From positions 1-46,010 of the forward strand of contig JALHUO010000046.1 of the NCBI GenBank assembly GCA_022866545.1: DNA of 46,010 nt, written 5' to 3'. This stretch comes from Dehalococcoidia bacterium (GTDB taxonomy: Bacteria; Chloroflexota; Dehalococcoidia; GIF9; AB-539-J10). The position numbers and the translations under genes are program-made. Under the pieces are notes generated by a model. That model searched no databases and was not told the origin of the DNA. It worked only from the letters and a program-made list of their open reading frames with translations. Shown piece after piece: positions 3,552 through 41,005 of the stretch. How positions within the stretch are numbered: position 1 is the first letter of the stretch; the number at the start of each line of letters is the position of its first letter.

Positions 3552-3556
3552 GATGG

Positions 3557-3603: not shown

Positions 3604-3660
3604 TAATGAGAACCGCGGTTCAAGGACTTTGACAGAGTTCCTTACAAAGGAATATTTATC

Positions 3661-6959: not shown

Positions 6960-6961
6960 AG

Positions 6962-7594: not shown

Positions 7595-7697
7595 CGCCAG
7601 TGTATTTTAGCTCGGAGCTAGGAAACACAAGTTTCAAGTCACAAAACCGTTTTCTCTCTCAAGTGGAAAGGCAAATAAGCCTGCCCGAAAAGCACAG

Positions 7698-7726
7698 TTG
7701 ACATAATCAACCAAGAGGCATATAAA
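7698..7726 (+). promoter_or_regulatory. candidate sigma70-type promoter for leuB-cimA (TTGACA-N17-TATAAA)
   Basis: TTGACA at 7698-7703, a 17-nt spacer, then TATAAA at 7721-7726. About 93 nt upstream of the leuB ATG. Confidence 0.35.
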
Positions 7727-7818
7727 TACCTTCTCCTAGTCGAAGAAGGCAAGGCGAATATATAATTAGGAAATTTTAGAGTGGGAATATACTAGGGCTC
7801 GAAAGCAGAGGAAATATT

Positions 7819-8907: not shown

Positions 8908-8918
8908 GGAGAGTCCTC

Positions 8919-12887: not shown

Positions 12888-13019
12888 CAGGCAATTATAG
12901 GCTAAATCTGGCTTCTGCTTCAACAAACTGTCTAGAGGAGCTCGTGGGTCATGGTGTATTGTAATATCTGGCGCATTAGGTTTATAATGGGCACAATATT
13001 TTCCTTGCAGGAGTCTTAA

Positions 13020-15452
13020 ATGAGCGAGCAAAGTCCAGAGAAAAAACGAAAGTTTCTCCCAATAGTCATAGTGGGCATAATCCTGGCAGCTCTCTGTGGC
13101 ATCTCACTGTACCTACGCCTGGCCCTGCCCTATGACCAGGTTTTTGTCAATAATGCGTCGGTCTGGTTTCGAGAGACTGACGCCTATTATTACATACGGC
13201 ACATAGAGACTATAGTTCACAACTTTCCCCACTTCAATACATTTGACCCTTATCAGTTCTACCCCGGTGGTGCGCCAGGACTTCTTCGGCCATTCTTCGC
13301 CTGGCTTGTCGCTGGAATTATTCTGCTTGTTAAGGGGGGGGCATCAACTCTGCATGCCATGGAAGCGGTGGCCGCCTACGTACCCCCTATTCTAGGCACT
13401 CTGACGCTCATCCCCGTTTACTTCATCGGCAAGGAACTGTTCAACCGTTGGGTGGGTGTAATTTCAGCCGCCCTGGTTATCATCATCCCCAGCGAATTTC
13501 TGCACCGCTCCCTGCTGGGCTTCACCGACCACCATGTCGCCGAGGTTTTGTTCAGCACCGTGTGCATGCTCTTTCTAATCATGGCCATTAGGCGAGCTCG
13601 GGAGAGAGAGATTTCCTTTGCCCACATTCTAAATAGAGACTGGTCAGCCGCAAGGAAGCCCCTCGTGTACACCCTGCTTGCTGGCATCTTCCTGGGTATT
13701 TACCTGCTGGCATGGACAGGAGCACTGCTGTTCGTGTTCATTATATTTGCTTACCTGGTGATTCAGTTCGTCGTGGACCACGTGAGGCATAAATCGACCG
13801 ACTATCTGTGCATTATCGGCACTCCTCTTTTCCTCATCGGCTATCTCATGCTTCTTCCCATATTGGGTGTAGGTAGTCTCGATATTTATCATGCTGCTAT
13901 GTTGATCGCCATAGTCATACCTATTGCCTTGGCTATCGTTTCAAGACTCATGGCACGCAAGGCTTTGAAACCTGTCTACTATCCCTTGACCTTGCTAGGA
14001 GTGGGTGTAATTGGGCTTGTTGCTCTGCGTGCCATCAACCCCTCCTTGTTTAACGGTATGTTCAGCCTATTTAGCATCTTCGCCCCACGTGGTGCTATGC
14101 TGACAGTGATGGAGGTGTCTCCCCTTCTTTTTCCGCAGGGCCAATTTTCTTTTCAAATGGCCTGGGGTAACTTTAATACCTCCTTCTTCATCTCAGTTGT
14201 TGCCATGGGCATGCTTATTTATGGCGCCATTAAGGGGAAAGGTGCCTACAGAATCCTGTTCCTGGTATGGAGCATAATAATGTTGCTGGCAGTCCTTGGG
14301 CAGCGCCGCTTTGGTTACTACTATACCGTAAGCGCCGCGTTGCTGACGGGGTATTTCTCTTGGAAAATGCTGGACGTTGCTGGCCTAAGCAAATTGCTGG
14401 TTAAGTCTAAGGAAGCAGTGAAGGCGGTTAAGAAGTTCAAGAAGAAGGAAAAGAAGAGCAGAGAACAAGCGAAAGCCGGAGGATTTATGCAGCCCAGAGG
14501 CGCCTGGGTGATGGTCATCGTTGTCGGAATAGTTCTATTCGCCATTGTCTTTTTACCCAGTATTTCCCCGGCTAAAGCACTTGGCGGGTCGCCAAATATG
14601 ATTATGGACGAGGGATGGTATAACTCACTTGTGTGGCTAAGGGATAACAGCCCCGAACCTTTTGATGACCCGGATTTCTACTATGAGCTGTACCCACCAC
14701 AGAACGAATTTGAATATCCCGCGACTGCCTACGGTGTGATGTCCTGGTGGGACTATGGCCACTTCATAATGCAGATTGCCCATCGCATACCCAATGCCAA
14801 TCCCGGTCAGGCTGGGGCCGTCCAGGCTGGCCACTTCTTTACCGCCCAGAATGAAACCGCAGCTAACGAAGTTGCCGACAAGGAAGGTACGAAATATGTG
14901 GTAATTGACTACATGATGGCAACTTCGAAGTTCTACGCCATGGCGGAGTGGGCCGGCAAAAGCGTGGATGAGTTTGAACAACGTTACTACGCGCCGGCGT
15001 ACAGCGACGCGCTACAGTACCTACCTTTGTTCTACACCGCATACTACAACTCCACTGTGGCCAGACTTTATAACTTTGACGGCGAAGCTGCAGTTCCGTC
15101 TGCAAACTCCACAGCAGCGATTTCTTGGCAATGGATGACGGGCACAGAACTATTAAATTACGGTTACAAGTGGATAATTTATTCTCAGTATCAAGTAGTG
15201 CCCATAAAAGCGGCGGCACGCTATAACGTAATTGTTGGCAGTCAGTTCTTCTCAAGTTCTGAAGAGGCTGAAACCTATGTCTCAGCTCAGCCATCGGGGA
15301 ATTATGACATAGGAGGCGTCAACCCCTTTGCTACCATCGTGCCTCTCGAAGCACTGAGCAGCTATGAGCGCGTTTATCCAGCTGGGGCCAATGTCACCAT
15401 CAACACGACAACCGTGAAGATTTTTGAGTATCTCGGCTCAGACGAATCCTGA
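13020..15452 (+). CDS. aglB: AglB/STT3-family oligosaccharyltransferase (GT-C, archaeal-type motifs)
   Basis: 810 aa, about 13 hydrophobic segments and a soluble C-terminal domain. Motifs RETDAYYY (E52/D54), GFTDHHVAE (D170-H172, E175), TVME (362-365), WWDYG (576-580, nt 14745-14759) and DK-type VIDYMMATSKFYAM. AGGAG SD lies 6 nt upstream. Confidence 0.9.
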   Translation: MSEQSPEKKRKFLPIVIVGIILAALCGISLYLRLALPYDQVFVNNASVWFRETDAYYYIRHIETIVHNFPHFNTFDPYQFYPGGAPGLLRPFFAWLVAGIILLVKGGASTLHAMEAVAAYVPPILGTLTLIPVYFIGKELFNRWVGVISAALVIIIPSEFLHRSLLGFTDHHVAEVLFSTVCMLFLIMAIRRAREREISFAHILNRDWSAARKPLVYTLLAGIFLGIYLLAWTGALLFVFIIFAYLVIQFVVDHVRHKSTDYLCIIGTPLFLIGYLMLLPILGVGSLDIYHAAMLIAIVIPIALAIVSRLMARKALKPVYYPLTLLGVGVIGLVALRAINPSLFNGMFSLFSIFAPRGAMLTVMEVSPLLFPQGQFSFQMAWGNFNTSFFISVVAMGMLIYGAIKGKGAYRILFLVWSIIMLLAVLGQRRFGYYYTVSAALLTGYFSWKMLDVAGLSKLLVKSKEAVKAVKKFKKKEKKSREQAKAGGFMQPRGAWVMVIVVGIVLFAIVFLPSISPAKALGGSPNMIMDEGWYNSLVWLRDNSPEPFDDPDFYYELYPPQNEFEYPATAYGVMSWWDYGHFIMQIAHRIPNANPGQAGAVQAGHFFTAQNETAANEVADKEGTKYVVIDYMMATSKFYAMAEWAGKSVDEFEQRYYAPAYSDALQYLPLFYTAYYNSTVARLYNFDGEAAVPSANSTAAISWQWMTGTELLNYGYKWIIYSQYQVVPIKAAARYNVIVGSQFFSSSEEAETYVSAQPSGNYDIGGVNPFATIVPLEALSSYERVYPAGANVTINTTTVKIFEYLGSDES

Positions 15453-16471: not shown

Positions 16472-17449
16472 GTGATTGTAGTTCAAACTCCTTTGCGAAT
16501 AAGTTTTGTCGGAGGAGGCACTGATTTTGATGACTTTTACTTATCCCAGGGTGGGGCGGTCATTAGTACTGCCATTGATAAATATGTATTTGTCATTGTA
16601 AAGGAAAGATTTGATGATCTAATTTGCCTGAACTACACGCAGAGAGAGCGAGTAGAAAGGGTAGATGACATCGGCCATGAACTTGTCAGAGAGGCTATGA
16701 GAATAACGGGAGTAGGCAAAGGGATAGAGATTACAACCCTTGCTGATGTACCTGCGGAGGGGACTGGCCTTGGTTCCTCGAGTAGTGTTACTGTCGGATT
16801 GCTTCAAGCCCTGTATGCTTACCAGGGTGAACTCAGGACAATCGAGACTTTAGCTCAGGAAGCATGCCGCATCGAGATAGACATACTGAAGCACCCCATA
16901 GGAAGACAAGATCAATACATCGCAGCATACGGCAATCTTCGCTTCATCACCTTCAGCGATGCTGGCGTTGAAGTTGAGAAAGTCGAGCTTCCCTCCCAAG
17001 AGAAGAGAAGGCTAAACGATTCTCTCCTCTGTTTCTATACGGGCATGACCAGAAAAGCAAGTGAAATTTTAGAGGAGCAGAAAGCCAACATAAATGACCG
17101 CCTTAGCGTGCTGGGTGAAATGAAAAAGCTTGCCTTCCGAGCGAAAGGTGCTATCCTGCAAGGTGCTTTTGATGAGTTGGGAGAGATTTTGCACTCAAGT
17201 TGGGAATTAAAAAAGACCCTTGCCAGCAAGATAACCAATCCCCAGATAGACGAAAGGTACGAAGCTGCTCGGAAGGCGGGAGCCATCGGCGGCAAGATTA
17301 CCGGAGCTGGTGGGGGTGGTTTTTTGCTTCTATATTGTCCGAAGGAAAAACAGGATGCAGTGAGAAAAACCCTCAAACTTCGAGAGCTTCCTTTCCGCTT
17401 TGAGTCAGACGGAAGCAAAGTAATTTTCAACTATAGGAGAGGCACTTGA
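16472..17449 (+). CDS. hddA: GHMP kinase, D-glycero-alpha-D-manno-heptose-7-phosphate kinase-like
   Basis: 325 aa with a GTG start after GGAGGGAG. PLRISFVGGGTDF N-terminus, GHMP motif PAEGTGLGSSSS and C-terminal GAGGGGF. Sits in an operon with gmhA, gmhB and a nucleotidyltransferase. Confidence 0.75.
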   Translation: MIVVQTPLRISFVGGGTDFDDFYLSQGGAVISTAIDKYVFVIVKERFDDLICLNYTQRERVERVDDIGHELVREAMRITGVGKGIEITTLADVPAEGTGLGSSSSVTVGLLQALYAYQGELRTIETLAQEACRIEIDILKHPIGRQDQYIAAYGNLRFITFSDAGVEVEKVELPSQEKRRLNDSLLCFYTGMTRKASEILEEQKANINDRLSVLGEMKKLAFRAKGAILQGAFDELGEILHSSWELKKTLASKITNPQIDERYEAARKAGAIGGKITGAGGGGFLLLYCPKEKQDAVRKTLKLRELPFRFESDGSKVIFNYRRGT

Positions 17450-18009
17450 ACGTCTTGGACACCATAAGGAAATACATTTCTGATATCAATGTAGCTTTAG
17501 GGAGGCTTCCGATAGACAAGATTGCTGAAGTTGTTGATTTGTTAGAAAAAGCACGACTTGAAGGCAATAAAGTTTTCATTTTTGGCAATGGCGGTTCAGC
17601 AGCTACCGCCTCACATTTCGCCAGTGACCTTTCAAAAGGAGCTATCAGCGAGGGAAAGCCAAGGATAAAGGCTTTTGCCTTGACTGACAACATACCCCTG
17701 CTTACAGCTTGGGCGAATGACACCTCTTATGAAAATGTTTTCGCTGAACAAGTGGAGAACTGTGTTGACCCTGGAGACATTGTGATTGGTATCAGCGGTA
17801 GTGGCAGTTCGCCGAATGTGCTTAAAGGTGTAAAAGTGGCGAAGAACAAGGGAGCTAATACCATCGGCTTTATTGGTTTCGACGGTGGGAAGCTTAAAAG
17901 CCTTGTGGATATTGCCATTATAGTGCCGAGCCATAATATGGAGCAGGTCGAGGATATACACCTGCTTCTTGAACATGTCATCACCACCTGTTTAAGAGAG
18001 GCACTTTAA
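17446..18009 (+). CDS. gmhA: phosphoheptose (sedoheptulose-7-phosphate) isomerase, SIS domain
   Basis: 187 aa. VFIFGNGGSAATASHFASDL, ISGSGSSPN and HLLLEH motifs. TTG start overlaps the hddA stop. Confidence 0.85.
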   Translation: MNVLDTIRKYISDINVALGRLPIDKIAEVVDLLEKARLEGNKVFIFGNGGSAATASHFASDLSKGAISEGKPRIKAFALTDNIPLLTAWANDTSYENVFAEQVENCVDPGDIVIGISGSGSSPNVLKGVKVAKNKGANTIGFIGFDGGKLKSLVDIAIIVPSHNMEQVEDIHLLLEHVITTCLREAL

Positions 18010-18010
18010 G

Positions 18011-18991
18011 ATGAATGTCCTGGTTACCGGCGGGGCAGGATACGTCGGAAGCATCGTTACCGGGCATTTACTACAACAGAAACACAAGGTAATTGTCGTA
18101 GATAATCTGCAACAAGGTCATAAGGAAGCAGTCCTGCCTCCGGCTGAGTTCGTTTTGACTGATATCTGCGATACATCAAGCCTTGAGAGCGCCTTCCGCC
18201 GGTTCAAGATTGATGCTGTAATGCACATGGCAGCCGAGACCGTAGTGGAATATTCCATGACCGATCCCAAAAGGTACTTTCATACCAATCTGCTGGGTGG
18301 GATGAACCTTCTTAATGCCATGCTGAAGCACGGTGTAGACAGGATCATCTATTCTTCTACTGCTGCTGTCTATGGTGAGCCCCACGGTATTCCCATAGAG
18401 GAAGACCATCCTGAAACTCCGATAAATAGCTACGGAGAATCAAAGTTGATGTTCGAGCGTATTCTGGACTGGTATGGCAGAGCCTATGGGCTAAAGCATA
18501 TATCTTTCAGGTATTTTTGTGCTGCTGGGGCAACAGAGCTTTTGGGTGAAGACCATCGTCCTGAGACCCACCTCATCCCGAACGTCCTTAAAGCAGCCTT
18601 GAACGAAAAAAATGCGGTTTCTGTATTTGGCACAGACTACCCGACGGAAGATGGAAGCTGCATCCGGGACTTCGTTCATGTGGTGGATATTGCCCGAGCT
18701 CATCTCGTAGCTATGGAGAAGATAGATAGTCTGAACGGGAACATCTATAACTTAGGAAATGGCAAGGGGTATTCGGTGCTCGAGGTCATCAAAATTGCAG
18801 AGAAAGTTGCAGGCGTGAGGATCCCCGTAAAATCTTGCCCCCGCCGTCTTGGAGACCCTGCAATACTAGTGGCCAGTGCAGACCGAGCTATGCGAGAATT
18901 AGGCTGGAAGCCTCAATTTTCCAGACCCGAAGATATCATCGAGAGCGCCTGGCAGTGGCTCAAGGGCCATCCTGATGGATACAAGCAATAG
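18011..18991 (+). CDS. galE: UDP-glucose/UDP-hexose 4-epimerase
   Basis: 326 aa. VLVTGGAGYVGS Rossmann motif, SSTAAVYG, YGESKLMFE (YxxxK), and RYFCAAGA and IRDFVHVVD typical of GalE. Confidence 0.85.
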   Translation: MNVLVTGGAGYVGSIVTGHLLQQKHKVIVVDNLQQGHKEAVLPPAEFVLTDICDTSSLESAFRRFKIDAVMHMAAETVVEYSMTDPKRYFHTNLLGGMNLLNAMLKHGVDRIIYSSTAAVYGEPHGIPIEEDHPETPINSYGESKLMFERILDWYGRAYGLKHISFRYFCAAGATELLGEDHRPETHLIPNVLKAALNEKNAVSVFGTDYPTEDGSCIRDFVHVVDIARAHLVAMEKIDSLNGNIYNLGNGKGYSVLEVIKIAEKVAGVRIPVKSCPRRLGDPAILVASADRAMRELGWKPQFSRPEDIIESAWQWLKGHPDGYKQ

Positions 18992-19751
18992 CCGCGTCAC
19001 CAAAGCGATGATACTTGCCGCAGGAGAAGGGACCAGGCTAAGGCCACTCACATTGGAAACCCCGAAGGTGCTCTTACCTGTAGCGGGTGTCCCTTTGATT
19101 TACTATACCCTTACCTGGCTCAGAAGCCATGGCATAGGAGAAGTATGCATCAATCTCCATCACCTGGCTAACAGGATAAAGGAGTCACTTGGAGATGGCT
19201 CTAGGTTCGGAGTCAAAGTGCATTACTCTGTCGAAGAAAGCCTGCTTGGGACTGCTGGTGGTGTGAAAAAAGTGGAGCACTTTTTTGATACCACTTTCGT
19301 TGTTGTCTACGGTGATGTCCTTACTGACTTCAATCTCTCAGCCATGATGGCATTTCATCAAAGGAAAAAGGCTATAGCCACGCTGGCAGTTACCAGAGTA
19401 TCCAATCCTTGGGAGACAGGCATCGTGAAAATGAATCGGGAGGGGAGGATTATTTCCTGTATCGAAAAACCCCCTAGGGGAACCGAAATGGGGAACATGG
19501 CAAATGGTGGGGTTTATGTCCTGGAAAGACAAGTTCTCGACTTCATTCCAAATCAAGGCTATTGCGATTTCGCCTACGACGTCTTTCCTAGGCTTGTAAG
19601 AGCGAACTTTCCTGTCTACGGGTATGTGCTTGGACACGAAGATTACCTCATTGACATTGGCGCCATTGACAAATATCTCAAAGCGAATGAGGACGTAAAA
19701 TCAGGGAAAGTGAAAATGACGTATGAAGAACAGAGCAGTGTTCCTGGATAG
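18975..19751 (+). CDS. hddC: sugar-1-phosphate nucleotidyltransferase (heptose-1-phosphate guanylyltransferase-like by context)
   Basis: 258 aa. ILAAGEGTRLRPLT..PKVLLPV signature, then YGDVLTD. Alternative start at 19008. Specificity is inferred only from the hddA/gmhA/gmhB neighbours. Confidence 0.65.
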   Translation: MDTSNSRVTKAMILAAGEGTRLRPLTLETPKVLLPVAGVPLIYYTLTWLRSHGIGEVCINLHHLANRIKESLGDGSRFGVKVHYSVEESLLGTAGGVKKVEHFFDTTFVVVYGDVLTDFNLSAMMAFHQRKKAIATLAVTRVSNPWETGIVKMNREGRIISCIEKPPRGTEMGNMANGGVYVLERQVLDFIPNQGYCDFAYDVFPRLVRANFPVYGYVLGHEDYLIDIGAIDKYLKANEDVKSGKVKMTYEEQSSVPG

Positions 19752-20277
19752 GGATGGCACTATTGCTCGGGATGTTCACTACTGCCGGCGGGCGGAGGAT
19801 TTCGAGCTGCTTTCCACCGTTCCCGAGGCAATAAAGCTTCTAAATGACAGCGGTTTCAAGGTTATAGTCATCACCAACCAGTCGGGTATTGCTAGAGGCT
19901 ATTTTACCGAAGAGGCACTGGCTCTAATTCACCAAAAGATGGAAGAGGAACTTGCCAGGCACAGTGCTAAAGTGGATGCTATATATTATTGCCCGCATCA
20001 TCCTGATGACGGCTGCGACTGTCGGAAGCCCAAGACTGGTCTTTTTCTCTTAGCTGCTGAAAAAATGGACGTTGATTTCAATTTGTCCTACGTGGTTGGG
20101 GACTTGCCCATGGATATAGAAGCTGGCAAAGCTTTAGGCTGTAAGACGGTTCTTGTAACCACGGGACCTAAGGCAGGAGAAGATATTCTTGACCCACCCG
20201 ACTACACTGCGAACAGCCTTATTAAAGCAGCCCTGTGGATAACAAAAGATGCCAATGTGGAAAATTCAGGATTGTAG
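19723..20277 (+). CDS. gmhB: D,D-heptose 1,7-bisphosphate phosphatase (HAD-IIIA)
   Basis: 184 aa. FLDRDGTI, ITNQSG and CPHHPDDGCDCRKP (zinc-binding insert typical of GmhB), then VGD..D. Confidence 0.85.
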   Translation: MKNRAVFLDRDGTIARDVHYCRRAEDFELLSTVPEAIKLLNDSGFKVIVITNQSGIARGYFTEEALALIHQKMEEELARHSAKVDAIYYCPHHPDDGCDCRKPKTGLFLLAAEKMDVDFNLSYVVGDLPMDIEAGKALGCKTVLVTTGPKAGEDILDPPDYTANSLIKAALWITKDANVENSGL

Positions 20278-28229: not shown

Positions 28230-29447
28230 ATGAATCTGTCGTCCAAAGATGTAATGGTATTTTTTGACCCTTCTTCGCCGGAATATTATGATGACCGCCT
28301 CTTTCAGGACGACCCCCTGCTCAATAGAGATAATTGTCTCTCCCCATATCACGAACTAAGGGATTCTCTTCTTGAGAAGGGTATTCAGGTTCACACCGCA
28401 GACCGTCTGCTAGGGGGGCAACTCACGGCACAATGTAATGCTTACTGTTCGCTTGGAATACTGGCAAACTATAAGCAACTGGCTGAAAGAGCTGATGTCA
28501 TTATGGGCTCGTTCTATGTTATGGAGCCCCCCGTTACTGGCCCGCAGCTATACCACGAGCTTAGCGGTCTGACGGAGCGGTTTAGTAAGGTATATGTTCA
28601 CAATATAGAAGGGGTGGGATACGAAAGATATTCTAGCCAGCAATCAAATTTGCGGAAATTCTTCTGGCCCCAGGTTGAAAATGGTGTCATAGAGTCTCTT
28701 TGGAACAATAAAGACAGAGGCTTTCTCACCATGGTCAGCGCAAACAAAGCACCCCCCCCTTATTTGCAGGTGAGAAGAGGGCAGAATCCTATCGGTCTTA
28801 GAATTTTCCTCAACAAAAACCCTGGCTTGAAAGACAGCGAGCTTTATTCTGAGAGAATCCGGGCATTGGTGGCGCTTCACAGCCTTGGGACCGTTGACCT
28901 CTACGGCTATGGTTGGGATATATCTTTATATCAGATCCTGCGTAACCTGCCTTATAGCCAGAGCTTCCCATATATGTACTGGAGGAACAGAAAAGCGTTG
29001 AGAGCTATCTATAAGGGTGCAGTGGAATCGAAATACGAGACACTGAGCCGGTATAGATTCGCCTTTTGTTTTGAGAATATGGCAATGCCCGGCTACATAA
29101 CGGAAAAGATATTCGACTGCTTCTTTGTGGGAGCCATTCCTATTTATCTGGGCGCCCCTGATATTGTAAAATACATACCGAAGGGTTGTTTTGTAGACAT
29201 GCGTGATTTTGATGACTACGCACGGCTGCATGCCTATCTCTTGGATCTGTCCGACCGGGACATCTCCTCGTTTAGAGAGACTGCGAGAGAGTATCTATCC
29301 TCTGAGCAGTATCGGCCTTTCACCAAGGAGAAATTCGTGGAGCAGTTTGAGGCGGACTTGATGGAGACGCTTAAGGCGAATGGGGTTAGTCTGCCGGGTC
29401 TGGGAGTGTCGAAGAATAGCACCAAGGAACGTTCGGAGGTTGAATAA
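28230..29447 (+). CDS. GT10-family alpha-1,3-fucosyltransferase-like glycosyltransferase
   Basis: 405 aa. [34 protein letters not shown] matches the alpha-1,3-FucT motif (F..FEN....Y.TEK......G.(V/I)P.Y.G). The N-terminal ~230 aa were not recognised. Confidence 0.8.
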
Positions 29448-30520
29448 TGGCAACAATCGCACTTATTACTGGAATAACAGGTCAGGATGGCTCATATCTT
29501 GCCGAGTTCTTGCTTTCCAAGGGGTATGAGGTGCATGGGCTTATCCGTCGGGCCAGCACCTTCAACACCTCTAGAATAGACCATCTCTTCGTTGACCTTC
29601 ACGAGCCGAAAGCGAGGTTTTTCCTTTATCACGGGGACCTGTCGGACGGAAGTCAGCTAACCAATGTCATCTATAACATTCACCCGGATGAAATCTATCA
29701 TCTAGGGGCCCAGAGCCATGTGCGTGTCAGCTTTGATACGCCAGAATACACCGGGGACATCACTGGTCTTGGCACGACTAGAATTCTGGAGGCCATTAGA
29801 AAGAGTGGAAGCAAGTGCAGGTTCTACCAGGCTTCCAGCAGTGAGATGTTTGGCAGCGCGACACCGCCGCAGAATGAGAACACGCCGTTCAAGCCCAGAA
29901 GTCCTTATGCTTGCGCCAAAGTTTATGCCTATTGGATGATCAGGAATTATCGTGACGGCTATGGCCTTTTTGCCTGCAATGGGATTCTATTCAACCATGA
30001 GTCTCCGCGGCGAGGCGAGACTTTTGTCACCCGGAAGGTAACCCGCGCCATCGCTCATATTCTGGCGGGGAAACAAGACTGCCTTTACCTTGGTAACTTG
30101 AAGGCGAAAAGAGATTGGGGCTATGCTCCGGAATACGTCGAAGCAATGTGGCTGATGCTTCAGCAAGAAAAGCCTGATGACTTTGTTATCGGAACAGGTG
30201 AGACCCGCAGTGTGCAGGAATTCGTGCAAGAAGCTTTCGCCTATGCGGGACTGGATTGGCAGCAGTATGTCAAGATAGACCCTCGCTACTTCAGACCTAC
30301 GGAGACAGAAGTGCTTATAGCGGATGCAACGAAAGCAAGGCAGAGGCTGGGATGGCAGCCGAAGGTGGCCTTTAAGGAGCTTGTCAGAATAATGGTAGAT
30401 GCGGACATGGAAGCTCTGGGGCTGACAAGTCCGGGGGAGGGGAAGTCTGCACTGGCAAGGCACGGTCTAAATGTGCGTGATAAAGCCTTGATCAATCCCA
30501 CAGGAGGAATGGAGAATTGA
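29447..30520 (+). CDS. gmd: GDP-mannose 4,6-dehydratase
   Basis: 357 aa. [53 protein letters not shown] and [17 protein letters not shown] are all hallmark Gmd strings. Confidence 0.95.
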
Positions 30521-31470
30521 GCTGGCTTGCGGCGAAAAGATTACTTGTAACCGGTGGAGTGGGGTTCCTTGGCAGGCACGTAGTAGAAGAGTTGGAGAAG
30601 AAGGGATGCAGGGAAATCTTCGTTCCCCGGAGCAAAGATTATGATCTCGTTGATATGGAAGCGGTAAAAAGGCTTTACCAGGATTCTAGACCGGATGTCG
30701 TTATCCATCTTGCTGCTAAAGTGGGTGGAATTGGTGTAACCGGCAAGAAACCTGGGGAGTTCTTCTACAAGAACCTGATGATGGGTGTACAGATGATGGA
30801 ACAGGGGAGGGTCTTCGGTCTAGAGAAATTCGTAGCTATCGGAACGGTCTGCGCCTATCCGAAATACATTACGGCTCCTTTTAAGGAAGAAGATCTATGG
30901 AATGGCTATCCAGAGGAGACCAATGCTTCCTATGGGCTTGCTAAAAAGATGACCCTGGTTCAAGCTCAGGCTTATAGACAGCAATATGGCTTCAACGCGA
31001 TCTACCTTGTCCCCGTCAATCTTTATGGTCCCGGAGATAATTTTGACCCGGAGTCCTCACACGCCATCCCTGCTTTGATTAAAAAGTGTCTGGACGCGAT
31101 GAAGAATAGCGAAAGAGAGATAGTTGTCTGGGGAAGTGGAAAACCAACCAGGGAGTATCTTTATGTTGCCGACTGCGCTGAAGGTATTGTCCTGGCCGCA
31201 GAAAGATACAATAAGCCTGAGCCGGTGAACCTTGGCTCCGGCTTTGAGATATCCATTAGGGATTTGGCCAGTTTGATTGCCAAACTGACTGGATATAAAG
31301 GGGAGATAACGTGGGATAGCTCTATGCCAGACGGCCAACCGAGGCGCCTTTTTGACAGCTCCAAGGCAGAAAAAGAGTTTGGCTTCAGGGCTAAGACAAG
31401 CTTCGAAGAAGGGTTAAGCAAAACCATTGCATGGTATGAAGAGCAGCGAAGTAAGGGGCTGTTGAGATAA
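30517..31470 (+). CDS. fcl: GDP-L-fucose synthase family (GDP-4-keto-6-deoxymannose 3,5-epimerase/4-reductase); could act as a ColC-type reductase
   Basis: 317 aa. [33 protein letters not shown] (YxxxK) and [22 protein letters not shown] start overlaps the gmd stop. Confidence 0.85.
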
Positions 31471-31491
31471 CCTCTGGAGTGGATAGGAAGC

Positions 31492-32772
31492 ATGAGTGAG
31501 ACAAGAGGTATTAGAAGGCAGATAAAGGACCTGATTCGAGAGTATTACTCTGGGACGAAAAGCAAAACGAAGTTCGTTCCGGGAAGAACGAAATTACCAT
31601 TGGTCGTTCCATCTTATGATTGGCAGGAGGTTTGCGACGCTATTGACTGTCTCTTGGATGGTCAGGTAACGATGGGAGAGAGGGTAAAGCAGTTCGAGTC
31701 CATATTTGCGGATTACATTGGGACTCGTTTCGCGACTATGGTGAACTCGGGGTCAAGCGCCAATCTCCTGGCGCTATCCGTGCTGACTAATCCTCTTCTT
31801 GAGAATCCGATGAAACCAGGAGACGAGGTCATAACGCCAGCGGTTACCTGGGCAACTACGGTATTCCCCATCATCAACTGCGGATTAGTACCAGTCTTGG
31901 TTGATGTGGATTTAGAGACTTTCAATATGAATACGGAGGAAATCAGGAAAGCCATAACTGATAAGACAAGAGCAATAATGCCTGTGCATCTGCTAGGCAA
32001 CCCCTGTGAGATGGATACAATCATGGATATAGCGACGCGATATGACTTGTACGTCATAGAAGATGCCTGTGAAGCCCACGGGGCAGAATTTGGGGGTCGG
32101 AGGGTAGGGAGCTTTGGCGATTTCGCGACCTTCAGTTTCTTCTTCTCCCATCACTTGAGCACAATTGAGGGGGGAATAGTGCTAACCGATAGTGAAGAGC
32201 TAGCCGGGCTGGCTAAATCTCTCAGAACCTTCGGCTGGGTTCGTGATTTAACGGATAAGGACAGAATTGCCCAACAATATGAGAGTATTGACCCCCGATA
32301 TCTATTTGTTAATATCGGATATAATTTTAGACCGACCGAAATGCAGGGGGCTTTCGGTATACAGCAGATAAAGAAACTGGATAGGTTCATACAAATACGG
32401 CAGGAAAACGCCGAGTTTTGGACTGAGAGTCTGAGACGACATGGGAATTATCTCTTATTGCACACTGAGAGAGAAAATACAAAGCATGTTTGGTTTGCGT
32501 GTCCTGTAACAGTTAAAGCTGATGCCCCTTTCACCAGAAAAGAACTGGTGGATTTTCTAGAGAAAAAGGGGGTCGAAACCAGGCCAATCATGTCGGGGAA
32601 TTTTGATGAGCAACCTGCAATGAGGCTTTTCCCCTATCGCAAAGTGGGGGATCTACCAAATTCAAGGTTCATTATGCGTAACTCGTTCTTCTTCGGAAAT
32701 CACCCCGGCATTGCTTCTGAGGAACGACAAGCAATCGTCGATTACTTCAGTGAGTTCATGCGAAGGTACTAG
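31492..32772 (+). CDS. DegT/DnrJ/EryC1-fold PLP/PMP enzyme with His in place of the Schiff-base Lys: sugar 3-dehydratase (ColD / E1-DdhC-like)
   Basis: 426 aa. NSGSSANLLA, PAVTW, EDACEAHG and SFFFSHHLSTIEGG. When aligned to the SF...K....EGG motif of aminotransferases, His occupies the Lys position. Confidence 0.7.
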   Translation: MSETRGIRRQIKDLIREYYSGTKSKTKFVPGRTKLPLVVPSYDWQEVCDAIDCLLDGQVTMGERVKQFESIFADYIGTRFATMVNSGSSANLLALSVLTNPLLENPMKPGDEVITPAVTWATTVFPIINCGLVPVLVDVDLETFNMNTEEIRKAITDKTRAIMPVHLLGNPCEMDTIMDIATRYDLYVIEDACEAHGAEFGGRRVGSFGDFATFSFFFSHHLSTIEGGIVLTDSEELAGLAKSLRTFGWVRDLTDKDRIAQQYESIDPRYLFVNIGYNFRPTEMQGAFGIQQIKKLDRFIQIRQENAEFWTESLRRHGNYLLLHTERENTKHVWFACPVTVKADAPFTRKELVDFLEKKGVETRPIMSGNFDEQPAMRLFPYRKVGDLPNSRFIMRNSFFFGNHPGIASEERQAIVDYFSEFMRRY

Positions 32773-35453: not shown

Positions 35454-36458
35454 CTATTGAATGGGAGGGCTGACATTCTGTCCATCGGAAAACCTGGCTT
35501 TTTTGTGCATCCAATTGACCGTTATCTCAACAGCCTGTTCTAATGTGTAGGGCAAATCATCGGCTACAAGGGGCTCCAGGTTGAATACGAAACTGGCCAG
35601 CATATTCCTGAGACGAGAAGTCGACAAAGGCGGCACGTTCCACCCCATGAACTTCATTATGTCGCCCACTCTCGCTAGCGCCTTGAGGACCGGAACCGGC
35701 ACTTGATGAATCCTTGGCGCCTGAAACGCCTCCTGGACAAGATTGACCCATGCACGCATGTTCGTCGGTGGATAATCAGCCAGGTAGAATGTCTTGCCGT
35801 GTACTTTGTCTGCTGATGCTTTTAGAAGTCTATCTAACTGGCAAACTGTATTCCCGACAAACCCCAGTGATTGGTTGACATTACTGCCACCGGGGTGGAC
35901 ATAGAGGCGGTTTTGTATTGCCTCGAACAGGTTCTTGTATGGCATGTCAAACCAGGGCCCCCAGATTCCGATGGGGCGGACAATCGTCCAGGAATATGGC
36001 AACTCGCTTGCCTCCCGCACCACCTTTTCTCCCAGCATTTTACCCTGGCCATAAAGGGTGTCAGGACAATAGTCGGTGTCATCCTTCGGTTGATACCCCG
36101 TCCTGCAGACAAGCATGGTTGAAACAAAGATGACCCTCTCCAGGTTGGGCAAGTCTCTTGCCGCTGAAATCAGGTTCCTTACACCTTCATAGTTGGTGGC
36201 ATAGTCTTCAAGCTTTCTTCCCCGGTCTGCTGTACCGGTTGTGGCAGCCATATTGACGACATAGGTTGGAGAGAAGCGGGCAATCTCTGTCCGTAGGAGC
36301 TGCGAGTCCAGGATATCCACCTGTCTCCAACAAGGCCGGTGCTGAGCATTCCTGGGGGGAGCGATATCGAAGTTGAGTACCTCTTCCCCTCTGGATAGGT
36401 AGTGCTCAACGAGGTTGGTACCTATGAAACCAGAACCGCCTGTTATCAGTACTCTCAT
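35454..36458 (-). CDS. NAD-dependent epimerase/dehydratase (extended SDR)
   Basis: 334 aa. VLITGGSGFIGTNL, then YGQGKMLGE (YxxxK). Confidence 0.8.
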   Translation of the reverse strand: MRVLITGGSGFIGTNLVEHYLSRGEEVLNFDIAPPRNAQHRPCWRQVDILDSQLLRTEIARFSPTYVVNMAATTGTADRGRKLEDYATNYEGVRNLISAARDLPNLERVIFVSTMLVCRTGYQPKDDTDYCPDTLYGQGKMLGEKVVREASELPYSWTIVRPIGIWGPWFDMPYKNLFEAIQNRLYVHPGGSNVNQSLGFVGNTVCQLDRLLKASADKVHGKTFYLADYPPTNMRAWVNLVQEAFQAPRIHQVPVPVLKALARVGDIMKFMGWNVPPLSTSRLRNMLASFVFNLEPLVADDLPYTLEQAVEITVNWMHKKARFSDGQNVSPPIQ

Positions 36459-36495
36459 TTCTATCCGTCATTCCGCTCATTCAGCAAACTCTGGT

Positions 36496-37494
36496 CTAGA
36501 ACTCAGCGTCCCGCTTGATGTTGTCCCAGTTCTCCAGAAACCACTTATGCACTTTTTTCAAGCCGTCCTCGAAGTTGGTTTGCGGCTGATAATCAAGAAG
36601 TTTTCTGGCTTTGTCAATTGAGGACCGCAGGTGGGTCTTCACGTCCCAATTCCGCCGGGGGACATGAGCGATACCGGCCTTGTTATTGGTGAGTCTGTTG
36701 ACTATGGAGGCAAGCTCAGCTACCTGGTGCTCGGTGCTAGAGCCAAGATTGATTGCCTCCCCGACTGCCTCTTCCCTGATACCCATTGCCAGCAAGCCTT
36801 TTATTATATCGTCCACATATGTCCAGTCCCTGGTCTCTGTGCCATCGCCGGTGATCGGCAGTGCCTGCCCATTCATGGCCCAGTAGAGGAAGTTCGGTAT
36901 CACGTTCCGATATTTTCCCGGTACTTCCCCGGGACCATATACATTGAAAAACCTGGCATTGACAATGGGAAGATTGTACAGATTGTGGAAGTAGTTGGTG
37001 TATAGTTCGCCGAGCAGTTTGGTTACCTGGTATGGCGTATGCAGACTGATGGAGACATCATGTTCTTCGAACGGTATCTTTGAGTCCAGGCCGTATACGC
37101 CACAGCCGGAGGAGGAATAAACAAATCTTCTCACCCCGGCGATGTTCGCATACTCAAGGACTTTCAGGATTCCCATTCCGTTTACCATCAAATCTGTCTC
37201 CGGATTATCAACCGAATTCTGGTTAGCAAAATGGGCTGCGAGGTGAAAGACATAGTCCGGCTTCTCTTTAAAAACACGCTTCAGCATTTCATCGTCGAGC
37301 ACGCTCCCCCTGACAAATAACACCCGTTCTGATTTGGGAATGTTCCACTCGTACGCTGCCGAGAGATCATCAAGGACGATGATTCTGGCCGCTTCGCCTT
37401 TGATTAATGCCCTGGTGAGATTGGAGCCGATGCACCCTGCCCCACCTGTGACAAGGATGTTCTTGCCTTTATACTTACTTAGGTACTCGTTCAT
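36496..37494 (-). CDS. NAD-dependent epimerase/dehydratase (extended SDR)
   Basis: 332 aa. ILVTGGAGCIGSNL, SSSGCGVYG, YQVTKLLGE (YxxxK) and FFNVYGPG. Confidence 0.8.
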   Translation of the reverse strand: MNEYLSKYKGKNILVTGGAGCIGSNLTRALIKGEAARIIVLDDLSAAYEWNIPKSERVLFVRGSVLDDEMLKRVFKEKPDYVFHLAAHFANQNSVDNPETDLMVNGMGILKVLEYANIAGVRRFVYSSSGCGVYGLDSKIPFEEHDVSISLHTPYQVTKLLGELYTNYFHNLYNLPIVNARFFNVYGPGEVPGKYRNVIPNFLYWAMNGQALPITGDGTETRDWTYVDDIIKGLLAMGIREEAVGEAINLGSSTEHQVAELASIVNRLTNNKAGIAHVPRRNWDVKTHLRSSIDKARKLLDYQPQTNFEDGLKKVHKWFLENWDNIKRDAEF

Positions 37495-38698
37495 TTTGCT
37501 TCTCCTTTATAGCTTCTTCCAAGATCTTCTCAAATTCGTCCGTGATGCTCTCCCAGCTGTATCTTTCAGCGAAGCTCCGTGCTTTCTGACCCAGCTCTTG
37601 TATTTTACCACTTTGAATCAGTTCCATGGCTTTGGCGACAGCGTCCTCAGGCTTATCCACATACACCACGCCGTTATCCTCGCCAAACTCTTTCATTACC
37701 CCGGGAAGTCTGGTGGCAATCACGGGCTTTTTCATTGCCATATACTCATACATCTTGATGGGGACAATGTCCTGCATTATTTTTTCATCAGGGTAAGCCG
37801 GCAGCAGGCATACATCGGAGGCAGCGATAAAAGATGGAATTTCCTCATAGGGCTTCTTGCCGGTGAGGATAATCCTGTCCTTCAAGTTATGTTTTTCACG
37901 TATTTGCTGAAGCGCCTCATAGGCATCGCCTTCGCCAACAACAAGGAGCTTGAGATTAGGATTGTCTATTCGGGCTAGTTGTGAGGCAACCTCTTTCAAG
38001 CCTGAAAATTGGTATAGCCAGCCCATGAAGAAGAGGACAATGTCCTTCCTGGTGAGCCCGTAATGTTGCCTTATGGTGTCACCTTTGGTAACTGGGTCGA
38101 AGCGCTCAATATCAATGCCTGCCCGCAGGATCTGAGTTCGCTCGGGCGAAGCTCCCAGCCCTTTCACGTAGTCCTTGAGTTTCTCGTTAATTGCCAGCAC
38201 TTTGTCGGCTTGTCGCAGTGTCTTGTGTTCTAACAACATGGCGATAGGGTGAAAAGGCTTGAAAGGAATAAGCCTGTGTAATACGTCGATCCAGTAGTAG
38301 ATAAATGGTGTGTTATTTTTCCTGGCGGCCCGCATCGCCAAATAGGTGCTCAAGATGCCGAAGCCGATAATCAGATCGGGACAAGAATCTTTTATTTGAT
38401 GACGGATTTCCTTTCTATAAGAGAATACTGATGAAACATAATCCAGCCAGGGAAGTTTTATGATGCCAGGGCGAATTAGCGTGACGTTTGCGCCATCATA
38501 GAATCTTGATACATTGCTGAACACCTGTCGTTTTGAGCGTAACTCCCTCTTGCCCTGTGTCCTCCATAGAAGCTCATAGTCGATGACACGAACTTCGTGA
38601 CCTTTTAGGGAAAGTCTCTCTATGAGGTGATGCTGCTGGTGTGGGCCTCGCAGCAGCCAGTCGGTATCCTGAACCAGAAGGATTTTCACGCCAGCCAC
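37475..38698 (-). CDS. GT4-family glycosyltransferase
   Basis: 407 aa with a GTG start. LVVGEGDAYE, then VPIKMYEYMAMKKPVIATRLPG. Confidence 0.85.
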   Translation of the reverse strand: MAGVKILLVQDTDWLLRGPHQQHHLIERLSLKGHEVRVIDYELLWRTQGKRELRSKRQVFSNVSRFYDGANVTLIRPGIIKLPWLDYVSSVFSYRKEIRHQIKDSCPDLIIGFGILSTYLAMRAARKNNTPFIYYWIDVLHRLIPFKPFHPIAMLLEHKTLRQADKVLAINEKLKDYVKGLGASPERTQILRAGIDIERFDPVTKGDTIRQHYGLTRKDIVLFFMGWLYQFSGLKEVASQLARIDNPNLKLLVVGEGDAYEALQQIREKHNLKDRIILTGKKPYEEIPSFIAASDVCLLPAYPDEKIMQDIVPIKMYEYMAMKKPVIATRLPGVMKEFGEDNGVVYVDKPEDAVAKAMELIQSGKIQELGQKARSFAERYSWESITDEFEKILEEAIKEKQNERVPK

Positions 38699-38701
38699 TT
38701 T

Positions 38702-39625
38702 TTACTTCTTGCTATAAACCCGTTTCATCCATTCAATGGTCTTCGGGATACCTTCTTCCAGGGGTATCTTCGGGGTATGCTTCAAGTCTCTTCTGGCTTT
38801 GGAAAAGTCCATGTGCTTGACTTTGGTGGTAAAAGGTTCCGCCTCCTTGTAAGTGACTTTGGAATCATTTTTGCCTAGATTCTTCAGTATAAGATCGGAG
38901 ACGTATTTTATCTCATGTTCCCATTCCTCTTTGCTCCCGATGTTGTAGACCTCTCCCGGTTTGAAATTATCAACTATATTAGCAAAGGTGCGGCAGGTAT
39001 CTTCGACATAGTCGAAGATGCGGCGGTGACCCAGGTAGACGGTATAAGGCTCGTCATTTAGGGCTTTATGGATAAAGGCGGGGATGACTCCTCGGTAGGG
39101 GCTATAGTATTCGTGGGGGCCGTAGGCGTTGACCGGTCGAACCCTTACGGTTTCAGTCCCAAACATGGCTGCTGAATTCAGTACCTGGAGCTCGCCCACC
39201 CACTTGGTCATAGCATAATCGTTCATTTGCTTTATGGGCACTTTGTCCATCACATCCTCACTCATCACCCTGTCGTAGTCACCATACACTTCCGCGCTGG
39301 AAAAGAATATCATTCTGAACTTCTTCCTTTCCTGGAGGCGGATCACATTCTTGGTACCTATTACATTGGTGAGCCAGAGGTTCTCATAATAATCCTCACC
39401 ATTCCAGCGCCCATACTCTGCGGCCAGGTGATAGACATAGTCAAAGTCATGCTGCTCAAATACTCGCTCAAGCTGGCGGTATTTAGCGACATCGCAGCGG
39501 ATGTAGTTCGGTCCCTCGGAATGCCCCAAATCACATACTCGGACTTCGTGTCTTCTTTTTCTTAGTTCGGGGACGAGGTTTGAGCCGATAAAGCCCAGCC
39601 CGCCGGTAACCAGTATTTTAGCCAT
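38702..39625 (-). CDS. NAD-dependent epimerase/dehydratase (extended SDR)
   Basis: 307 aa. ILVTGGLGFIGSNL, SSAEVYG and YAMTKWVGE (YxxxK). TAATG overlap with the wecB stop. Confidence 0.8.
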   Translation of the reverse strand: MAKILVTGGLGFIGSNLVPELRKRRHEVRVCDLGHSEGPNYIRCDVAKYRQLERVFEQHDFDYVYHLAAEYGRWNGEDYYENLWLTNVIGTKNVIRLQERKKFRMIFFSSAEVYGDYDRVMSEDVMDKVPIKQMNDYAMTKWVGELQVLNSAAMFGTETVRVRPVNAYGPHEYYSPYRGVIPAFIHKALNDEPYTVYLGHRRIFDYVEDTCRTFANIVDNFKPGEVYNIGSKEEWEHEIKYVSDLILKNLGKNDSKVTYKEAEPFTTKVKHMDFSKARRDLKHTPKIPLEEGIPKTIEWMKRVYSKK

Positions 39626-40701
39626 TAATTATCCTCCGTTATAATTCTTACGATTCTCTGGCCTGCTTTGCCATCTCCAAACGGGTTGCTCCACTTGTTT
39701 TCCTTATTAAGCATAAGTCTGGTGCAGCGAAGTATTTTGTCGGGTAGGGTTCCAGCTAGAAGATTCGAGCCAACCTCCAGGGTTTCAGGTCTTTCAGTGT
39801 TGTCCCGTAAGGTAACACAAGGAATACCGAGGATGCAAGCTTCTTCCTGAACGCCGCCGGAGTCGGTGAGGATAAGCCTGGCGTTGCTCTCAAGTTGCAG
39901 GAAGTCGAGGAAACTTACGGGTTCAATTAGTGTAATGTTCTTGGGGTCAAGGCCAAACTCGTTCATCCTCTTCCGAGAATGAGGGTGGACAGGGTAGACT
40001 GTCGGGATGCGAAACTCAGCAGCTACTTTATCCAGACCCTTCAAGATTGAGGCAAATCGTCTCGGGTTGTCAACGTTCTCCTGTCGGTGAAGGGTCACCA
40101 GGAAATATTCTTTGGGGGTAAGATTCAGACTACTAAGAGTATTTCCTTGTTCTTTAGCTATCCCTAGATTCTGATAGACAGCATCAACGATAGTGTTGCC
40201 TGTGACAAAAATCTTCTCTTTAGAGATGCCTTCACCAAGTAGAATCTGTCTAGCTTTCGGTGTAGGGGCAAACAGGTAATCGGAGCAATGGTCAGTTAAG
40301 ATTCGGTTGATTTCCTCGGGCATACTTCTATCGTAGCTTCTTAGTCCGGCCTCGACATGCCCGACTTTTACATGGAGTTTTGTCGCTGCCAAAGCTCCAG
40401 CGAACACAGAGTTGGTATCGCCCTCCACGAGGATGATATGAGGGCTTTCATCCCGCAAGACATTTTCTACGCCTATGAGTATCTTTGCCGTCTGTTGAGC
40501 ATGAGAACCTGAGCCAACCTCAAGATTGTATTTAGCTTGCGGCAACTTTAGCTGCTCAAAGAAGACCCTGTCTAAGTTATGGGAATAATGCTGACCGGTG
40601 TGGAGGATAAAGTAAGTGACTTGCCTCTTCTCCAGCTCCCTGATTACCGGAGACATCTTGATTATTTCGGGGCGAGTACCTAAAGCTATGGCGATTTTCA
40701 T
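39625..40701 (-). CDS. wecB: UDP-N-acetylglucosamine 2-epimerase (non-hydrolysing)
   Basis: Contains IALGTRPEIIKMSP, HTGQHY, VEGDTNS, HVEAGLRS and DSGGVQEEA. The track ORF starts at 40734. Met12 (40701) gives the canonical MKIA... N-terminus and removes the overlap with the upstream gene. Confidence 0.9.
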   Translation of the reverse strand: MKIAIALGTRPEIIKMSPVIRELEKRQVTYFILHTGQHYSHNLDRVFFEQLKLPQAKYNLEVGSGSHAQQTAKILIGVENVLRDESPHIILVEGDTNSVFAGALAATKLHVKVGHVEAGLRSYDRSMPEEINRILTDHCSDYLFAPTPKARQILLGEGISKEKIFVTGNTIVDAVYQNLGIAKEQGNTLSSLNLTPKEYFLVTLHRQENVDNPRRFASILKGLDKVAAEFRIPTVYPVHPHSRKRMNEFGLDPKNITLIEPVSFLDFLQLESNARLILTDSGGVQEEACILGIPCVTLRDNTERPETLEVGSNLLAGTLPDKILRCTRLMLNKENKWSNPFGDGKAGQRIVRIITEDN

Positions 40702-40714
40702 AACAAAATTTCCC

Positions 40715-41005
40715 CTAGATTTTGCGGCATTCAAAAGTAACAGTTCCGCCTTGGGTATAAGGTTCGCCAGGGTCTACACATTGCATATAAGCACGGTCTG
40801 GATCGCGAGATGTCGTTAATCCAAGTTTTACAGGGCACCAATCGTGTTCCAATATGGTAACGTAATGCAGCAAGGTTGATAGTGCATGAGTGCAAACCGC
40901 GTCTGTTTTGTCCAACAGTATTCTTGGGTCGTCTATCACCATTTTGTCACCGACCTTATACACCGGGCATTTGCCTTTAATCTTGCGGACCTTTATCTCC
41001 AGCAT
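40715..41005 (-). CDS. small Cys-containing protein resembling the TIGR04076 family
   Basis: MLEIKVRKIKGKCPVYKVGDKMVIDD....AVCTHALSTLLHYV....CPV....YMQCVDPG....VTFECRKI. 96 aa from the ATG at 41005 (the track ORF uses an upstream TTG at 41059). The family assignment is from memory of the motif pattern. Confidence 0.5.
   Translation of the reverse strand: MLEIKVRKIKGKCPVYKVGDKMVIDDPRILLDKTDAVCTHALSTLLHYVTILEHDWCPVKLGLTTSRDPDRAYMQCVDPGEPYTQGGTVTFECRKI

Follow-up and report, generated by a model that had tools for sequence, protein, structure and literature searches.

We analysed a 46,010-nucleotide stretch of DNA from a Dehalococcoidia bacterium (GenBank assembly GCA_022866545.1, contig JALHUO010000046.1; hereafter the window), which is contig C208 of a 1.75 Mb genome that is 96% complete. 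The window contains a self-contained module (28230-32772) of four genes, encoding a GT10-family glycosyltransferase, a GDP-mannose 4,6-dehydratase (Gmd), an Fcl-like short-chain dehydrogenase/reductase (SDR) and a 426-amino-acid protein of the DegT fold that resembles the sugar 3-dehydratase ColD. As judged from sequence and gene context, the product of the last three genes is very probably an activated 3,6-dideoxy sugar destined for a cell-surface glycan, with GDP-colitose the most likely candidate. We consider it probable that the Gmd, ColD-like and Fcl-like enzymes convert GDP-mannose to GDP-L-colitose and that the GT10 enzyme encoded upstream then transfers the sugar. The four genes are co-directional and translationally coupled: the stop codon of the GT10 gene overlaps the gmd start in TAATG, the gmd stop overlaps the start of the Fcl-like gene in TTGA, and 21 nucleotides separate the Fcl-like gene from the DegT gene. 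Purine-rich ribosome-binding sites were seen upstream. The gene 3' of the DegT gene is convergent, so the DegT gene closes the plus-strand run. The three open reading frames lie where the first-pass annotation of this DNA had placed them, with the DegT gene directly following gmd and the Fcl-family gene.

To place the 426-amino-acid protein, we compared it with families and solved structures of the DegT fold. It matched PF01041 (fold type I, DegT/DnrJ/EryC1) with 331 bits over residues 49-418. A phmmer search against the PDB returned Escherichia coli ColD (2gms; 304 bits, E 1.8e-89) and, over the full length, Yersinia E1 (3bcx; 297 bits), with perosamine synthase at 194 bits and the remaining aminotransferases weaker. 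The first-pass annotation had read a histidine at the position where aminotransferases carry the Schiff-base lysine, and the motif that it quoted is real: window positions 32128-32175 translate as TFSFFFSHHLSTIEGG. In the alignment the query segment FFSHH lay over FYSHH of ColD, and the ColD mutant chains 3b8x (H188N), 2r0t (H188K) and 3gr9 (S187N/H188K) diverged at precisely the Ser-His columns of the query, which identifies its first histidine, His220, as the equivalent of ColD His188. The same residue aligned with His220 of E1. We then built a MAFFT alignment of 44 sequences, among them 26 of the window protein's family and 14 lysine-type DegT aminotransferases (including E. coli ArnB and WecE and two paralogues from related Dehalococcoidia loci). 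The column held histidine in all 26 family members and lysine in all 14 aminotransferases, and the residue before the histidine was serine in 23 family members and threonine in the other three. On these alignments the correspondence is one of homology, not chance, and the register of the first-pass annotation was right.

The two kinds of histidine enzyme compared here differ in how the cofactor pyridoxamine 5'-phosphate (PMP) is restored. E1 binds a [2Fe-2S] cluster through Cys193, Cys251, Cys253 and Cys261 and requires the reductase E3, whereas ColD is cluster-free and regenerates PMP with glutamate (reviewed in PMC8987622, which cites Alam, Beyer and Liu 2004 and Cook and Holden for the mechanism of ColD and ColC). 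Sites that tell E1 from ColD are discussed in bioRxiv 10.1101/2021.09.04.459008. In our alignment the E1 loop RDCYCAPGCDNTCK was absent from the 426-amino-acid protein, which has in its place a cysteine-free loop, FGWVRDL...TDKDR, resembling HGWTRNL...PKKNK of ColD; such a loop, GW(V/I/T)R(D/E/N)L, occurred in 28 of the 29 ColD-side rows. Of the E1 motif Cys-X57-Cys-X-Cys-X7-Cys, the equivalents of Cys251, Cys253 and Cys261 were missing, and only that of Cys193, a cysteine that ColD also has, was kept. At all of the diagnostic sites the protein had the ColD residues: Cys-Glu at E1 193/194 (Glu for Asp194), Phe for E1 Tyr217, Ser before the histidine (Ala219 in E1) and Phe at E1 345. E1 differs from this set, and the lysine-type aminotransferases differ at all of the sites.

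A maximum-likelihood tree (LG+C20) separated the histidine enzymes from the lysine enzymes (100/99), with E1 as the first branch of the former, and united the window family with E. coli ColD and two Campylobacter jejuni C3-dehydratases to the exclusion of E1 (100/96). The characterised ColDs sit on a long branch (1.83). Identity of the window protein is 38-39% to ColD, 38% to the C. jejuni enzymes and 38% to E1, compared with 30% between ColD and E1. It exceeds ColD by about 36 N-terminal and 20 C-terminal residues, both of which align with E1, and thereby has the overall length of E1 (AscC/DdhC/RfbH of Yersinia and Salmonella; PDB 3BCX, 3BB8). From these comparisons, the most fitting description of the protein is a deep branch of the ColD type that has the size of E1, and we predict that it regenerates PMP with glutamate and needs no reductase. 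The assignment to the ColD kind made in the first-pass annotation thus survived both the search for Fe-S cysteines and the phylogeny that it had proposed. We rejected a perosamine synthase or other aminotransferase, with which that annotation had contrasted its reading: the residue is histidine, not lysine, and the lysine enzymes form a separate clade.

The two genes in front encode enzymes that would provide and finish the substrate. Gmd passed the TIGR01472 equivalog cut-off (522 bits; cut-off 415) and scored 350-454 bits against 11 solved GDP-mannose 4,6-dehydratases, including Arabidopsis MUR1 (454 bits) and E. coli Gmd (438 bits), compared with 115 bits against the C. jejuni GDP-heptose 4,6-dehydratase 7us5 and 123 bits against the Rmd-type reductase 2pk3. 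It is the only Gmd in the genome, and its predicted product is GDP-4-keto-6-deoxy-D-mannose. As references for this and the Fcl-like protein we used the O-antigen and colanic-acid region of E. coli O55:H7 CB9615, and Gmd is 53-54% identical to both Gmd copies of that strain. The Fcl-like protein scored 293 bits against NF047922 (GDPFucSynFcl), below the cut-off of 500; its best PDB match was the GDP-L-fucose synthase 7ll6 (235 bits), and E. coli GMER gave 210 bits. It is 35% identical both to E. coli Fcl and to O55 ColC, which are 39-40% identical to each other. It shares with Fcl the SDR fold and the position after gmd, and it keeps Cys109, Tyr136, Lys140 and His179, with Thr for Ser107. This full catalytic set suggests that it would be competent for both epimerization and reduction. 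We propose that it is a GDP-L-colitose synthase, although it could also make GDP-L-fucose. The E. coli O55:H7 cluster also has a gmd gene, and its colC (annotated as 'GDP-L-fucose synthase family protein') stands before colD and overlaps it, which is the order seen in the window. The trio of Gmd, ColD and ColC named in the first-pass annotation therefore stands as to its canonical gmd and its gene order; the equal distance from Fcl and ColC leaves its third member without a firm ColC identity.

The protein encoded directly before gmd belongs to GT10 (PF00852, 54 bits) and matched the Helicobacter pylori alpha-1,3-fucosyltransferase 2nzw over residues 265-337, a C-terminal region that includes the nucleotide-sugar motif of alpha-1,3-fucosyltransferases. 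A GT10 gene accompanies the trio in two of the three lineages of the subclade to which the window protein belongs: it lies directly before gmd in L097, as in the window, and is separated from it by a B12-radical-SAM gene in L093/L137; the proteins are 53% and 69% identical to that of the window, respectively. The family and position of this enzyme suggest that it is the likely transferase of the colitose-type sugar. The E. coli O55 cluster, by comparison, encodes WbgN, annotated as an alpha-1,2-fucosyltransferase.

Together, these assignments suggest the following route. Gmd would oxidize C4 of GDP-mannose and dehydrate C5/C6 to yield GDP-4-keto-6-deoxy-D-mannose. The ColD-type enzyme would bind this ketone as a PMP ketimine, with His220 abstracting the C4' proton and the 3-hydroxyl being expelled; hydrolysis of the enamine would release GDP-4-keto-3,6-dideoxy-D-mannose and ammonia. 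PMP would then be regenerated from pyridoxal 5'-phosphate with L-glutamate, so no Fe-S cluster or E3 reductase would be needed. The Fcl/ColC-family SDR would epimerize C5 through its equivalents of Cys109 and His179 and use NAD(P)H to reduce C4; the product would be GDP-L-colitose (3,6-dideoxy-L-xylo-hexose), or possibly the C4 epimer. GT10 would probably attach the sugar to a lipid-linked glycan, the work of the glycosyltransferases, methyltransferases and flippase encoded nearby, and the acceptor could be an N-glycan dependent on the oligosaccharyltransferase AglB or another surface glycan.

The window cluster lacks manB and manC genes, a difference from the E. coli O55 colitose cluster, and we asked where GDP-mannose might come from. 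Contig C169 of the same genome (1727-5024) encodes a mannosyl-3-phosphoglycerate synthase (533 bits; cut-off 351), a mannosyl-3-phosphoglycerate phosphatase (262 bits; cut-off 244) and a divergent 386-amino-acid nucleotidyltransferase whose best match is mannose-1-phosphate guanylyltransferase (ManC-like; 290 bits, below the cut-off of 440). Mannosyl-3-phosphoglycerate synthase uses GDP-mannose. These genes indicate that GDP-mannose should be available, and we set aside the objection that its supply is lacking; the organism probably makes the compatible solute mannosylglycerate. The 426-amino-acid protein is the only full-length DegT match above the Pfam cut-off in the genome, and no paralogues of the Fcl-like, ColD-like, HddA, GmhA, GmhB or GT10 genes were found in the genome outside the window.

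Table 1. Features of the window that bear on the proposed pathway, with the evidence for each.
Feature	Position	Strand	Evidence or remark
GT10-family glycosyltransferase; candidate transferase for an L-fucose-like product (colitose or fucose)	28230..29447	+	PF00852, 54 bits
Gmd, canonical GDP-mannose 4,6-dehydratase	29447..30520	+	357 amino acids; TIGR01472
Fcl/ColC-family SDR, predicted C5- (and C3,5-) epimerase / C4-reductase	30517..31470	+	317 amino acids, TTG start; NF047922 below cut-off
ColD-type PMP/PLP-dependent (PLP, pyridoxal 5'-phosphate) sugar 3-dehydratase, DegT fold	31492..32772	+	426 amino acids; PF01041
His220 codon, predicted catalytic histidine replacing the Schiff-base lysine	32149..32151	+	Alignment to ColD His188 and E1 His220
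GDP-heptose module: HddA-like, GmhA, HddC-like, GmhB	16472..20277	+	Pfam and NCBIfam matches
AglB/STT3-type oligosaccharyltransferase, head of plus-strand cassette	13020..15452	+	PF02516, PF22627

Several observations weigh against GDP-colitose as the product. The 426-amino-acid branch is known from its sequences only, and at 38-39% identity to ColD it is equally far (38%) from E1. The Fcl-like protein stands no closer to ColC than to Fcl and may produce GDP-fucose in addition to GDP-colitose or in its place. The ColD clade holds enzymes that act on a heptose: the C3-dehydratases of C. jejuni HS:5 and HS:11 use 6-deoxy-4-keto-heptose, make GDP-3,6-dideoxy-heptoses and are reported to share 62-67% identity with the ColD proteins of E. 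coli and Yersinia (Ghosh, Xiang and Raushel 2023, PMC10440746). In our alignment they were 61% identical to E. coli ColD, a value subject to small errors as the C. jejuni sequences came from a supplement read by optical character recognition. With heptose enzymes inside the ColD clade, the sequence of the dehydratase cannot separate hexose from heptose as the substrate. Furthermore, a complete GDP-heptose module lies in the window on the same strand, about 9 kb upstream of the trio. In four other loci (L114, L115, L134 and L135) such a module stands in one co-directional run with the trio, and those runs contain no manB or manC gene. Among the 301 genomes of the host class, an HddA-like kinase was found in five of the six that carry a ColD-like gene and in 46 of the 295 that do not (Fisher p = 6e-4). 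The first-pass annotation, which proposed a GDP-3,6-dideoxyhexose, had left a GDP-heptose substrate out of account; its ColD-type chemistry holds, and the hexose part of its claim is weakened by the heptose enzymes of the ColD clade and by the heptose module that adjoins the trio in about half of the related loci.

As the main alternative to GDP-colitose, it is possible, if on the whole unlikely, that the same chemistry is applied to a GDP-heptose, as C. jejuni HS:5 and HS:11 do, to give a GDP-3,6-dideoxy-L-heptose, which is a colitose homologue of seven carbons, with one Fcl-like enzyme replacing the separate C5-epimerase and C4-reductase. The C. jejuni pathway and the window have in common a ColD-clade C3-dehydratase following a 4,6-dehydratase, the C. 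jejuni one being glutamate-dependent, and a GDP-heptose module in the locus. The module abuts the trio directly, by way of a transaldolase gene, in L114 and L135, and extra genes intervene in L115 and L134; it is also found near the ColD-like gene in L117, and a GmhB fragment is found in L014. A verrucomicrobial endosymbiont, Candidatus Organicella, is annotated with ColD and ColC beside heptose genes and keeps both together with GmhA, HddA and HddC (PMC8204192).

The details of the window, however, fit the C. jejuni route poorly. Its 4,6-dehydratase scores as a canonical GDP-mannose enzyme and not as 7us5, the only characterized heptose 4,6-dehydratase with a structure. The cupin C5-epimerase of the C. 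jejuni type is missing as well: tblastn with the HS:5 enzyme gave no match anywhere in the genome. The solved-structure matches of two further window SDRs (SDR332 and SDR307) did not include the Cj1427 structure 6vo6, and no thiamine or radical-SAM partner was seen among the open reading frames of the window. A single Fcl-like enzyme, 27% identical to the HS:5 reductase, stands where C. jejuni has an epimerase and a reductase. Between the window's heptose module and the trio lie about 9 kb of methyltransferase, glycosyltransferase and flippase genes, and GDP-mannose appears to be available in the genome. Nor does the heptose module follow the trio everywhere. In the window's own subclade, no heptose genes were found within the stretches examined upstream of the ColD-like gene, namely 17 kb in L137, 8 kb in L097 and 5.7-8 kb in L095 and L096. 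The dehydratase occurs without HddA in genome G035 (95% complete), where its gene adjoins gmd, as well as in G301 and the Woesearchaeota genome behind L013. In L134, two extra SDR genes stand between the heptose module and gmd. L115 has a heptose-tailoring pair of its own in that place, a Cj1427-type SDR (6vo6, 290 bits) and an Fcl paralogue, an arrangement that fits two separate sugars in one glycan. The heptose module of the window either makes a second sugar of the same glycan or provides an alternative source of substrate.

The heptose genes of these loci showed some further features. The tailoring genes of L115 lie at 13936-14877 (Cj1427-type SDR) and 12959-13912 (second Fcl paralogue, 46-47% identical to the window Fcl-like protein) and suggest a separately tailored heptose in that genome. 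A short gene of the transaldolase/FSA family lies between the GDP-heptose module and gmd in L114 (2456-3151), L115 (14914-15642) and L135 (7289-7969); it presumably supplies sedoheptulose-7-phosphate and has no counterpart in the window. In L135, a gene for an SDR of 324 amino acids stands directly in front of HddC. In the window, a bona fide GalE gene (18011-18991; TIGR01179, 386 bits) interrupts the heptose module between GmhA and the HddC-like gene; we considered it as a heptose 4,6-dehydratase and rejected it on the strength of the GalE match.

A second alternative to GDP-colitose is that Gmd and the Fcl-like enzyme make GDP-L-fucose for GT10, with the ColD-like enzyme of minor effect or drawing off no more than part of the flux; the glycan would then contain fucose, with little or no colitose. 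The known activity of GT10 enzymes is fucosyl transfer, and the Fcl-like protein, which has the complete Fcl catalytic set and is as near to Fcl as to ColC, is encoded by the only Fcl-family gene of the genome. The ColD-like gene, however, is intact and translationally linked to the others, and it has been kept with gmd and fcl across lineages at 55-84% identity. Its conserved catalytic residues and this linkage argue for selection on the 3-deoxygenation step, and we regard fucose as the main product as improbable.

We found it very improbable that the DegT protein is an E1-type (RfbH/DdhC/AscC) CDP-4-keto-6-deoxyglucose 3-dehydrase making CDP-3,6-dideoxyhexoses: although its best NCBIfam match is RfbH/E1 (NF011936, 395.4 bits), its full-length alignment with E1 takes in terminal extensions that ColD lacks and some homologues carry E1-type names in JGI, the RfbH score falls short of the cut-off of 423, the Fe-S cysteines and their loop are missing, two further E1 residues are replaced as in ColD, E1 branches outside the clade, and no CDP-glucose 4,6-dehydratase was found above cut-off in the genome (TIGR02622, best 77.6 bits against a cut-off of 278, from other window SDRs). 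Sequence and genome context together exclude the CDP route, and the window also lacks an E3 gene. L137, the closest relative locus of the trio, offers an internal control for the pairing. This locus carries a true E1-type DegT protein (445 amino acids, IEDCCD...FYPAHH...RDCWCEPGKDNTC) with the Fe-S cysteines beside a nucleotidyltransferase, SDRs and a split thiamine enzyme, whereas its ColD-type gene stands beside gmd and fcl. The E1-type gene belongs to a second deoxysugar module (1543-8968), upstream of the flippase-GT10-gmd-fcl-colD genes, in which the split thiamine enzyme consists of E1_dh and transketolase domains; this module may be a pathway for a branched-chain 3,6-dideoxy sugar.

To see how widely the module occurs, we examined homologues and related loci. 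The best 120 of about 8,000 matches to the 426-amino-acid protein were all 64-84% identical to it. The listed homologues came from metagenomes and metagenome-assembled genomes, the few named sources being Chloroflexota, Dehalococcoidia, Dehalococcoidales and Firmicutes. One NCBI record among them is already labelled GDP-4-keto-6-deoxy-D-mannose 3-dehydratase. In NCBI the names are mostly generic aminotransferase, and in JGI several members of this family, which has no Fe-S motif, carry the E1 name 'CDP-6-deoxy-D-xylo-4-hexulose-3-dehydrase'. This looks like systematic mis- or under-annotation of the branch. In the host class the gene is rare and patchy: each of the six carriers among the 301 genomes belongs to another genus, and the gene is absent from both genomes of the same genus and from all six of the same family. 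The ColD-like gene is accessory, and probably mobile. A search of genome contigs for related loci returned nearly all generic lysine-type DegT aminotransferases, the useful loci being L013 and L014. In the sample of 15 loci used for synteny (the window, L013, L014, L093/L137, L095, L097, L113-L117 and L134-L136), ten have a canonical gmd and an Fcl-like gene immediately before the ColD-like gene. The window's subclade in the tree comprises P0009 (L093/L137), P0016 (L095) and P0037 (L097), at 71-84% identity.

The first-pass annotation had treated 3,6-dideoxyhexoses as a speciality of Gram-negative O antigens. This overstated the novelty: homologues are numerous, and colitose pathways have been predicted in most prokaryotic phyla, the TACK archaea being the one group in which an absence is noted (PMC7725333). 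Neither the enzyme type nor its mechanism is new, and uncultured microbes carry the gene set widely. The advance is modest: the deep, uncharacterized, E1-sized ColD branch gains a member from the Dehalococcoidia, a GT10 enzyme is put forward as the likely transferase, and the genes have a bacterial AglB in their neighbourhood. In practice, what is gained is better annotation: if the prediction holds, the ColD branch of 426 amino acids that abounds in metagenomes, now partly called E1 or generic aminotransferase, receives its correct label. It would also mean that 3,6-dideoxy sugars reach beyond Gram-negative O antigens to the envelopes of uncultured Chloroflexota and of many other sediment microbes. 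The compact GT10-gmd-fcl-like-colD-like module could be expressed for the enzymatic production of GDP-colitose.

The host and the AglB gene bear on where the sugar might go. An archaeal host had been supposed; the organism is instead a bacterium, with LeuB (7819-8907) 88-90% identical to Dehalococcoidia bacterium proteins, and is assumed to lack lipopolysaccharide, unlike E. coli. AglB heads the plus-strand cassette 14 kb upstream of the trio, and the first-pass annotation had taken the trio to be wired to it. The connection is positional: the same-genus genomes G212 and G240 both have AglB and lack the trio, and AglB is absent from the five other carrier genomes of the class, from the Woesearchaeota genome and from Chloroflexi RBG_16_64_32. 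AglB and the trio occur independently, which points to two features inherited independently. From their position, it is possible that the dideoxy sugar is part of an AglB-made N-glycan. The fuller proposal, that the archaeal-type AglB N-glycosylates surface proteins with a glycan of heptose and a GT10-added 3,6-dideoxy sugar (colitose or its heptose homologue), we consider quite doubtful. If true, an AglB-dependent N-glycan would for the first time be found to hold a 3,6-dideoxy sugar, GT10 would gain its first colitosyltransferase, and a large uncharacterized ColD branch with E1-like extensions would have its function assigned. Should the GDP-colitose prediction hold, it would name a likely constituent of the glycan on which this AglB, a rare one in bacteria, acts.

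Finally, a block of genes on the minus strand of the window (35454-40734) encodes SDRs with unusually close structural matches. The SDR at 36496-37494 scored 592 bits (about 79% identity) against PDB 6pmh, a 'UDP-glucose 4-epimerase related protein', and that at 38702-39625 scored 490 bits against 8w3u/9ar1, a 'dTDP-glucose 4,6-dehydratase related protein'. GT4 genes and a gene for a UDP-GlcNAc 2-epimerase-like protein accompany them. We had considered the window's other SDRs as Cj1427- or 7us5-like enzymes and rejected this assignment, as they are close relatives of 6pmh and 8w3u. We take 6pmh and 8w3u/9ar1 to be proteins of a pseudomurein-related cluster of Methanothermobacter; if so, the block would have been acquired very recently from Methanobacteriales-like archaea, which would fit the archaeal type of AglB.

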